From: Candidatus Hadarchaeum sp.
Lineage (GTDB): Archaea; Hadarchaeota; Hadarchaeia; Hadarchaeales; Hadarchaeaceae
Direction of reading: 5' to 3'
DNA length: 39,180 nt
Assembly: GCF_049969415.1 (NCBI RefSeq)
Contig: NZ_JBMFOX010000012.1
Coordinates: 1 to 39,180, forward strand
How positions within the stretch are numbered: the first letter of the stretch is position 1; each line of letters starts with the position of its first letter. The notes under the pieces are model-generated. The model worked only from the letters and a program-made list of their open reading frames with translations, was not told the DNA's origin and did not search any database. The position numbers were made by a program, and so were the translations under genes. Shown here in pieces: positions 19,189 to 20,631 of this stretch.

Positions 19189-19277
19189 AATCTGGCGTGG
19201 TTTAGTTCCAGGAAGGCCGGTACCATTGGTTACATAGGATTAATTATTTGCCGGCTAAAAGATTGACTGGGGTGCCG

Positions 19278-20471
19278 ATGTACGGCGACATCTTTGAAGA
19301 GGAGATGGGCAGGGACACGGTTTTTCGAGACGCCAGCAAGCTGATGCCGGAATACGTACCACAGGTGTTGGTTCATCGAGATGAGGAGTTTCGACAGCTG
19401 ACCAGGTTTTTCAAGCCGGTGCTCGAGAACCGGGCGAGTCAGCGGGTTCTGGTTACCGGGAGCGTTGGGGTCGGCAAGACGGCCCTGACGAGAAGATTTG
19501 GTGCCGAGCTCGAGAAGGCGGCGAGCGCTCGGAGGATGAGCCTGAGCTATTTGCACATCAACTGCCGCAAGGACAGAACCATCTACTCGGTGATCTCCAA
19601 GATTCTACAGCACTTCAACCCGCGGTGGCCCTACCACGGTCTTGGCCCGGAGAAGCTTCTCAATGATGTCGTTACTTATCTCAACACCCGCGATGCCTAT
19701 CTGACGGTTGCGCTCGATGAAATTGATTTCTTTGTGCAGCAGAACGGTCCAAACCTCATTTATTCCCTGACGAGGACGGCCGAGGAATCCGGCGGTCCCA
19801 ATCGCATAAGCATCATCGCGATCGCCCGCGATAAGAGCTTTCTGAGGTCTCTGGATGCAGCCACGCAGAGCACCTTCATGCACAACGTCATCTCGCTGGA
19901 CCGGTACAGCGCCTCGCAGCTGAGGGACATCTTGGCGAGCAGAGTAAATGAAGCTTTCAAGCCGGGCGTTGTCGAGGAGGACACGATTGACCTAATTGCC
20001 GATATCGCCTCCAGATGGGGTGATGCCCGCTTTGCGTTGGAGCTGCTCTGGCGTGCCGGGATGGCCGCCGATGCCGAGAATGTAAGAGCGGTTACCCCGG
20101 AGCACGCGCGGAAGGCGAAGGCGGAGGTCTATCCAGAGATTAAGCGGGAGACTTTGCAGGATCTTCAGTTGCACGAAAAACTGGTCCTGCTCGCCGTGGC
20201 CCGCAAGCTGGTCTTGTCCCAGCGAGCCTATGCCTTCACCGGGGACGTTGAGAGAACGTACCGGGTGGTCTGTGAGGAGTTCCATGAGGAGGCTCGGAAA
20301 CACACGCAGTTCTGGGAGTATCTCCAGAGGCTGGGGGCGTTGGGCTTGGTGGATATTAAGCCGTCGGGGGTGGGGCAGCGCGGCCAGAGCCTCAAGATAG
20401 GCATTCAGGAAGTGCCCGCGGAGTGGCTGGAAAAAGAGATTGAGAAGTTGATCCGAGGAAGGAAGAATTAG
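19278..20471 (+). CDS. cdc6: ORC1/Cdc6 replication initiator family protein
   Basis: L.PEYVP..LVHR, Walker A GSVGVGKT, HINC, Walker B LDEID, GDARFALELL, C-terminal winged helix. Confidence 0.93.
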   Translation: MYGDIFEEEMGRDTVFRDASKLMPEYVPQVLVHRDEEFRQLTRFFKPVLENRASQRVLVTGSVGVGKTALTRRFGAELEKAASARRMSLSYLHINCRKDRTIYSVISKILQHFNPRWPYHGLGPEKLLNDVVTYLNTRDAYLTVALDEIDFFVQQNGPNLIYSLTRTAEESGGPNRISIIAIARDKSFLRSLDAATQSTFMHNVISLDRYSASQLRDILASRVNEAFKPGVVEEDTIDLIADIASRWGDARFALELLWRAGMAADAENVRAVTPEHARKAKAEVYPEIKRETLQDLQLHEKLVLLAVARKLVLSQRAYAFTGDVERTYRVVCEEFHEEARKHTQFWEYLQRLGALGLVDIKPSGVGQRGQSLKIGIQEVPAEWLEKEIEKLIRGRKN

Positions 20472-20479
20472 TTTCAAGC

Positions 20480-20487
20480 TTTTTATC
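20480..20487 (+). promoter_or_regulatory. TATA box of the tRNA-Pro gene
   Basis: AAGC-TTTTTATC about 25 nt upstream of the tRNA 5' end. Confidence 0.55.
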
Positions 20488-20509: not shown

Positions 20510-20631
20510 GGGGTCGTGGGGTAGCTTGGTCTATCCTTCTGGCTTAAGGTCCTCGCGTGACCTGCCGAACGGGGCTTAGACCATAAGCGTAAAAGCCAGA
20601 GACCCGAGTTCGAATCTCGGCGACCCCACCA
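20510..20631 (+). tRNA. tRNA-Pro(CGG) with two introns (33/34: 20546-20569; 37/38: 20574-20593)
   Basis: Acceptor stem GGGGTCG/CGACCCC plus ACCA; archaeal Pro-type D arm GGGTAGCTTGGTCTATCC; anticodon stem CTGGC/GCCAG; T arm CCGAG-TTCGAAT-CTCGG. Removing two BHB-bounded segments gives loop TT-CGG-GA and a 78-nt mature tRNA. Confidence 0.85.

Follow-up and report, generated by a model that had tools for sequence, protein, structure and literature searches.

Multiple-intron tRNA genes of the Thermoproteales were reportedly described by Sugahara et al. in 2007/2008. Genes of this kind, with several introns bounded by bulge-helix-bulge (BHB) motifs, are now established, and the portions of the literature drawn on here place them mainly in the Thermoproteales (PMC4033280; PMC4090602). 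As described in those portions, they carry two to three BHB introns per tRNA, some of them non-canonical, that are removed by the endonuclease EndA and a ligase, and in these respects the gene reported below is like them. However, Thermoproteales hosts are described with an (alpha-beta)2 EndA bearing a crenarchaeal loop, whereas the Hadarchaeota host has one alpha4-like EndA, and, unlike in the Thermoproteales genes covered there, both Hadarchaeota introns lie in the anticodon loop and leave an exon of 4 nt. In the tRNAscan-SE 2.0 paper, some introns are stated to be so close that the second motif forms only after the first has been removed (PMC8450103). Its passages on close introns share the idea of ordered formation, but they concern detection, mostly in Crenarchaeota and Thaumarchaeota, and contain neither a Hadarchaeota example nor a 4-nt exon. 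Methanopyrus kandleri likewise has a two-intron tRNA in a euryarchaeal-type lineage, pre-tRNA-Glu(UUC), with one non-canonical and one canonical intron (PMC5829648); in the relevant text, its non-canonical intron lies in the D arm and has a relaxed HBh' motif, and its enzyme is (alpha-beta)2. The same paper assigns to Hadesarchaea YNP_N21 an 'L3-harbouring' alpha4 EndA and associates it with increased disruption of tRNA genes (Kaneta et al. 2018; PMC5829648). Its text on Hadesarchaea describes no individual tRNA gene, and the word 'Hadesarchaea' is absent from one of its supplement files. A preliminary description of the present DNA had called multi-intron tRNAs rare in euryarchaeal-type lineages, which stands in general but is too broad for Hadesarchaea, whose tRNA disruption that text already reports. 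The archaeal splicing mechanism, sequential motif formation for close introns and tRNA gene disruption in Hadesarchaea are already known; what is distinctive here is the 4-nt exon, its phylum-wide conservation alongside natural controls that lack introns, and the single plain alpha4-like EndA of the host. A literature search outside the primary intron-position papers returned no description of the gene or of a 4-nt tRNA exon.

The gene lies on the plus strand at positions 20510-20631 of the window (the whole 39,180-nt stretch of DNA that was analyzed) and belongs to a hot-spring Hadarchaeota archaeon. Sequencing runs on record for this DNA were three DNA runs from one hot-spring study, with no RNA run among them. 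We are highly confident, from its sequence and that of its relatives, that it is a tRNA-Pro(CGG) gene with two introns, of 24 nt at 33/34 and 20 nt at 37/38, separated by the micro-exon CGGG (Table 1). The tRNA frame is complete, with a D arm containing G18 G19, a T arm CCGAG-TTCGAAT-CTCGG and a variable loop of 4 nt, and the anticodon-stem strands are separated by 51 nt, that is, the 7-nt loop plus 44. For intron 2, the anticodon stem serves as the outer helix; for intron 1, the outer helix consists at most of C27:G35 and G-U pairs and is not conserved. Every coordinate and motif element given in the preliminary description was found at its place in the sequence. A/T-rich tracts also occur at a comparable distance 5' of both paralogous Pro genes of the genome. 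An Orc1/Cdc6 gene with Cdc6 lid and winged-helix domains (19248-20471, plus strand) stops 39 nt 5' of the tRNA, and a replication origin may lie near it.

Table 1. Features of the two-intron tRNA-Pro(CGG) gene, in window coordinates, and other host tRNA genes with a D-arm-region intron, in contig coordinates. Arrows mark predicted exon-intron boundaries.
Feature	Position	Strand	Basis or remark
Putative archaeal promoter, A/T-rich TATA-like box TTTTTAT	20480-20486	+	By eye; 24-30 nt 5' of tRNA position 1
Exon 1, tRNA positions 1-33 (acceptor 5' strand, D arm, CTGGC, U32, U33)	20510-20545	+	Sequence; Rfam match
Acceptor stem GGGGTCG/CGACCCC, followed by A73 and encoded CCA	20510-16 / 20621-27	+	
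Anticodon stem CTGGC/GCCAG	20539-43 / 20595-99	+	
Intron 1, 24 nt, between positions 33 and 34	20546-20569	+	Bulge-helix-bulge
Intron 1 central helix TGGC/GCCG, 4/4 pairs	20540-43 / 20564-67	+	Sequence
Intron 1 inner stem AGGTC/GACCT; bulges TT↓A and AA↓C	20547-51 / 20559-63	+	Sequence
Micro-exon CGGG, anticodon C34 G35 G36 plus G37	20570-20573	+	GGG invariant in 19 sequences
Intron 2, 20 nt, canonical position 37/38	20574-20593	+	Bulge-helix-bulge
Intron 2 central helix U32 U33 C34 G35 / CGTA, 3/4 pairs, one U-U	CGTA at 20588-91	+	Sequence
Intron 2 inner stem CTTA/TAAG; bulges GG↓G and AA↓A	20575-78 / 20584-87	+	Sequence
Exon 3, positions 38-73 (A38, GCCAG, 4-nt variable loop, T arm, acceptor 3' strand, A73)	20594-20628	+	
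Encoded CCA end	20629-20631	+	Sequence; CCA in 13/19 aligned homologues
Glu(ttc) gene with D-arm-region intron	C6:41388-41482		
Gly(tcc) gene with D-arm-region intron	C23:7755-7847		
Ala(cgc) gene with D-arm-region intron	C28:2180-2272		
Leu(gag) gene with D-arm-region intron	C6:18837-18940		

Standard tools pass over this gene or misname it. ARAGORN in default mode reports no tRNA in the 39-kb window, and Rfam at its gathering threshold returns no match there. The Rfam tRNA model RF00005 matches only under permissive filters, at 20510-20628 over the full model (43.9 bits, E 2.7e-8; gathering score 29), and its alignment puts a 49-nt insertion in the anticodon loop. When introns are allowed, ARAGORN -i names the locus tRNA-Leu(taa) i(37,44), a miscall as Leu that had been predicted. 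Because default finders miss or miscall the gene, Hadarchaeota annotations may seem to be without Pro(CGG). A canonical single-intron reading leads to an AAG anticodon, and an NGG anticodon is out of reach for any single excision; the sequence also agrees with the earlier remark that a single 37/38 intron fits no motif. Removing both introns in silico leaves a 78-nt product with a normal cloverleaf, called tRNA-Pro(cgg) by ARAGORN. MFE folds of the whole precursor contain no cloverleaf.

The two-intron solution also emerges from a blind excision screen, in which all over-long tRNA spans of the genome were taken, segments bounded by BHB-like motifs were removed in up to three rounds, and the products were submitted to ARAGORN. 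Results were taken from the stricter filter; the looser version yielded 62,825 candidates, with many spurious products accepted by ARAGORN. Under the strict filter, the top solution for this locus is Pro(cgg), with introns of 24 nt (4-bp central helix, 5-bp inner stem) and 20 nt (3 bp and 4 bp) at coordinates identical to those proposed earlier. Two weaker solutions are left, Val(aac) and Arg(acg), both with A34 and neither suited to the body. The usual traits of a tRNA-Pro are present, namely the NGG anticodon, G37, a short variable loop and a Pro body of the type found in the lineage. In the host genome (1.47 Mb, 138 contigs, 95% complete), there are three Pro-type bodies only, and the 5' and 3' halves of the tRNA match only the other two. 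These read as Pro(TGG) (C9:20430-20522) and Pro(GGG) (C6:34037-34129), each with an ordinary 18-nt intron at 37/38, so no other tRNA-Pro(CGG) is found among them and the present gene is the sole candidate for this function. CCG is the commonest proline codon of the genome (36%, counted in 558 ORFs of at least 300 codons), and the tRNA for it would be supplied by this gene.

Searching 41 related genomes at the DNA level found matches to nearly the whole gene and its introns in 18 relatives, which together with the window's gene form an alignment of 19 rows. Across these homologues, exon 1 is invariant or compensated. In intron 1, all of the sequences (100%) have a paired central helix, with an outer pair of UG in nine, UA in eight and CG in two, and the inner stem has both-side changes at four of five pairs (for example, GC in 12 and AU in seven). 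The covariation score of intron 1 is 0.198 versus 0.115 when shuffled, a value reached in 0 of 500 shuffles, and slid controls do not exceed 0.064; both motifs lie above all 500 shuffles and all slid controls. For intron 2 in the spliced register, base 34 and its intron partner are CG in 10 sequences, UA in eight and UG in one. This covariation means that the micro-exon is CGGG in some genes and TGGG in others, with intron 2 following. U33 is paired in 14 of the 19, and the five exceptions include the U-U of the window's gene.

The exact pattern drawn from this alignment was also scanned over a public collection holding one genome per species, which returned 75 loci. The entire two-intron gene is present at 28 of them, 26 in records labeled Hadesarchaea, Hadarchaeota, Hadarchaeum or Hadarchaeales, and the remaining two in records labeled 'Methanobacteriota archaeon' and 'Candidatus Hodarchaeaceae archaeon'. 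The other 47 are chance matches in which the tRNA context is absent; most are bacterial, and an 'uncultured archaeon' and a Bathyarchaeota record account for one each. The 'Candidatus Hodarchaeaceae archaeon' record (JASEGJ010000001.1) carries a Hadarchaeota-like two-intron gene of Pro(TGG) type, and its label or binning may be off. Within the phylum, 26 of 66 genomes have the pattern, representing 12 of 20 genera and four of six families (reversed control, 0); because the pattern was derived from these sequences, it is blind to the layout in other lineages, and diverged copies are undercounted as well. Altogether 27 distinct genes with the layout, nearly all from Hadarchaeota, were compared. 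The intron 1 helix has 4/4 pairs and both bulges are kept in 27/27, with an inner stem of at least 4 bp in every case. The inner stem of intron 2 reaches at least 3 bp in 22/27, with fewer than three contiguous pairs in the other 5/27 by a simple count. Of these genes, 13 have C and 14 have T as the first base of the micro-exon, and CGGG and TGGG copies occur together in three genomes. Searching the rest of the host genome with either intron by blastn found no copies, and there is thus no sign of intron transposition.

Orthologues with fewer or different introns occur in the same phylum. A genome of the same family (G016) has an intronless 75-nt Pro(CGG) gene with the loop TTCGGGA, to which the predicted mature tRNA aligns without gaps at 66/75 identical positions, the differences being mostly paired stem changes. 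In a genome of the same genus (G006), the loop is intact and an intron lies in the D arm instead. The Pro(CGG) genes of two relatives (G004 and G015) combine a D-arm intron with one at 37/38, and two more (G010 and G025) have the 37/38 intron only. From these forms, intron 2 can be regarded as the ordinary canonical intron of the tRNA and intron 1 as an extra insertion between U33 and C34, which therefore falls inside the exon strand of the intron 2 central helix. The Pro(GGG) genes of G004 and G015 (on their contigs C80 and C40, respectively) have, by eye, an intron between positions 32 and 33; its 3' part, GCTG, duplicates the 3' side of the anticodon stem, a decoy design shared with intron 1.

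The blind screen, the ARAGORN product, the loop TTCGGGA of intronless and single-intron orthologues and the covariation agree with the original proposal of a Pro(CGG) gene with two introns and a 4-nt micro-exon, and the other identities can be weighed against this evidence. That the locus is a tRNA-Leu (UAA or AAG) with one 44-nt intron is what the ARAGORN -i output says, but it is extremely improbable: the body agrees with both Pro paralogues, its variable loop is 4 nt long where Leu would have a long arm, the single intron fits no motif, the invariant GGG amid the supposed intron is left unexplained, and contig C45 already carries a normal 87-nt Leu(TAA) gene. Nor does the failure of default tools to see the gene make a convincing case for a decaying pseudogene with junk in its anticodon loop, which we hold to be very improbable given a layout kept through four families of the phylum, the compensatory changes, and the lack of any other Pro(CGG) candidate in a genome that uses CCG most often for proline. 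The run CGGGG would on paper permit shifted splice sites that give Pro(GGG) with a micro-exon GGGG at 20571-74; this shift, however, breaks the two-plus-one cut rule in both bulges and leaves the covariation of base 34 with intron 2 without a role. Moreover, the piece is TGGG in 14 of 27 genes and is often followed by A, which would give A37, and a separate Pro(GGG) gene exists, so that this reading too has only a very slight chance of being right.

For the two-intron Pro(CGG) gene, a splicing pathway can be proposed from its predicted structures. During transcription, U28 G29 G30 C31 would pair with the GCCG near the 3' end of intron 1, which is a copy of the genuine 3' side of the anticodon stem, and with the inner hairpin AGGUC/GACCU this would create a pair of 3-nt bulges, UU↓A and AA↓C, with 4 bp between them. 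A single alpha-type EndA would cut both bulges, and RtcB would join U33 to C34. Only then could the anticodon stem close and U32 U33 C34 G35 pair with the CGUA of intron 2, forming an ordinary 37/38 motif with bulges GG↓G and AA↓A and the inner stem CUUA/UAAG. This motif would be cut and ligated next, leaving the mature loop UUCGGGA. Taken as a whole, a Pro(CGG) gene with two protein-spliced BHB introns in its anticodon loop, spliced by a mechanism that we infer, is likely to be the best explanation of the data, nearly as firmly as the gene structure itself.

Whether intron 1 is always removed before intron 2 is a separate matter, and a fixed order appears somewhat more probable than a free one. 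The preliminary description had argued for ordered splicing and had noted that the intron 1 helix competes with the anticodon stem, a competition that is borne out, as U28-C31 are used in the intron 1 central helix and are otherwise anticodon-stem bases. The two motifs are mutually exclusive because C34 is bulged in that of intron 1 and paired in that of intron 2, and because intron 1 sits within the central helix of intron 2, which needs U32 U33 joined directly to C34 G35, removal of intron 1 probably precedes that of intron 2. Among the 27 genes, this helix has 4/4 pairs in 22 and 3/4 in five in the spliced register; in the unspliced register, in which the last two bases of intron 1 replace U32 U33, it has 2/4 in 17 and 3/4 in 10, and no gene reaches 4/4. 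The spliced register is better paired in 23 of 27 genes and tied with the unspliced one in the remaining four (the window's gene plus three close relatives), in which a pair between A20569 and T20590 is possible. The claim of ordered splicing thus draws on the structural inference and on the 22 of 27 genes with 4/4 pairs in the spliced register only, but for the window's own gene, with 3/4 pairs in either register, the helix count alone forces no order. In the unspliced state, a 22-nt hairpin would stand between the anticodon stem and the helix, putting the 3' cut site of intron 2 in a multiloop and not in a bulge. Transcription order may also favor intron 1, as transcription would finish its motif 28 nt ahead of the competing GCCAG strand. 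Nearest-neighbor energies count, in the model, against an intron 1-first conformer: it is calculated at -18.7 kcal/mol versus -24.3 kcal/mol with the anticodon stem closed, 5.6 less stable, and a forced intron 2 motif is at -8.5 versus -19.4 for the free fold.

The gene and its splice sites would be identical if the order were not obligatory, with EndA cutting the four sites in any order or almost at once and RtcB joining the three exons later. The 3/4 pairs that the window's intron 2 helix retains with or without intron 1 fit such a scheme, as does the arm fold, in which the intron 2 inner hairpin and 5' bulge can form in the unspliced precursor. It is nevertheless unlikely, while deserving more weight than any of the other identities, since motifs that need C34 bulged in one and paired in the other cannot coexist, the registers differ in 23 of 27 genes in favor of the spliced one, and the unspliced 3' site of intron 2 would be presented in a multiloop. 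A free exon of 4 nt would also need to be held through two ligations.

The enzymes expected for the proposed pathway are encoded in the host genome. EndA is represented by one gene (contig C9, 1246-1785; 179 aa), with N and C domains matching PF02778 and PF01974; residues 15-179 align to the M. jannaschii alpha4 enzyme 1a79 (E 8.9e-37), and Tyr115, His125 and Lys156 are kept. No second subunit was detected in the host genome, either as a further PF01974/PF02778 match at E up to 10 or by tblastn. A weak tblastn match to EndA on contig C44 (E 0.49) falls in a 334-aa ORF otherwise unlike EndA and was set aside as chance. Across the phylum, 59 of 66 genomes have an EndA match, and 56 of 66 have exactly one. 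RtcB is present as a PF01139 match on contig C4. The host EndA looks like an alpha4-type enzyme, the homotetramer being suggested by gene content. On contig C9, the EndA gene has as its gapless 3' neighbor a 367-aa ORF (1786-2889) that by eye resembles a class I aminoacyl-tRNA synthetase, and this pair is about 5 kb from the Pro(TGG) gene.

Compared with the host enzyme, the A. pernix alpha subunit has nine extra residues at the site of the crenarchaeal loop (CSL), ARMAN-2 EndA has five extra residues between Tyr and His, and N. equitans alpha has six more residues over the C domain. Because the host C domain aligns without gaps to residues 77-171 of M. jannaschii EndA and the insertions occur only in the other EndAs, none of the known specificity loops is seen: no L1/CSL, L2/ASL or L3 insertion relative to M. 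jannaschii EndA was detected, the L3 site being taken from the description in the published text. Typing of the enzyme, which the preliminary description had put forward as a check, thus gives a single alpha4-like gene and, as far as that text locates the loops, no insertion. The YNP_N21 EndA is described as having an L3 loop, but the L3 call is not reproduced for the gapless host enzyme; a figure or supplement of PMC5829648 may define the loop differently from the passages used here. According to those passages, alpha4 enzymes are strict (PMC5829648), and this, with no specificity loop visible in the host EndA, counts against the proposed pathway. A strict enzyme might suffice for the present gene, since both motifs keep the two-bulge core of 3-nt bulges 4 bp apart. 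The earlier view that the host needs an endonuclease with relaxed specificity is therefore not upheld: the gene does not require one, only the outer helix of intron 1 being weak, and the EndA is plain and alpha4-like.

A bolder proposal is that Hadarchaeota splice non-canonical, mutually exclusive BHB motifs in an obligate order by means of a plain alpha4 EndA without known specificity loops, which we regard as tentative and rather doubtful. If it were true, neither subunit architecture nor loop insertions would explain which archaea can carry disrupted tRNA genes, and the 4-nt anticodon exon, seen phylum-wide, would rank with the shortest internal exons that any tRNA has. With intronless, one-intron and two-intron versions of the gene together with one alpha4-like EndA, the phylum is a natural test set, open to the questions of whether alpha4 enzymes need strict motifs and whether RNA structure fixes the order of splicing.

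Disrupted tRNA genes are common in the host genome, given that the strict screen found well-formed introns of 18-21 nt, each with a central helix of 4 bp, in the D-arm region of four other tRNAs (Table 1), which matches the 2018 statement on Hadesarchaea. The strict screen gave no solution for several long tRNA spans, including those on C1, C2, C7, C10 and C18:10090. Two Arg-like spans without a strict solution, C10:21631-21735 (105 nt) and C7:29818-29924 (107 nt), appear by eye to have two introns, with one insert in the 5' strand of the anticodon stem and one at 37/38. A 153-nt span on the minus strand, C18:4353-4505, is named Pro(tgg) by ARAGORN -i and is by eye a tRNA-Trp(CCA), with a long 37/38 intron containing box C/D-like motifs (GATGATGA, CTGA) and a second insert, roughly 21 nt long, ahead of the anticodon stem. 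On contigs C74 and C136, tRNA-Ile(gat) and tRNA-Ala(tgc) genes of bacterial type stand side by side, the arrangement of bacterial rRNA operons, and these contigs are probably contaminants in the bin.
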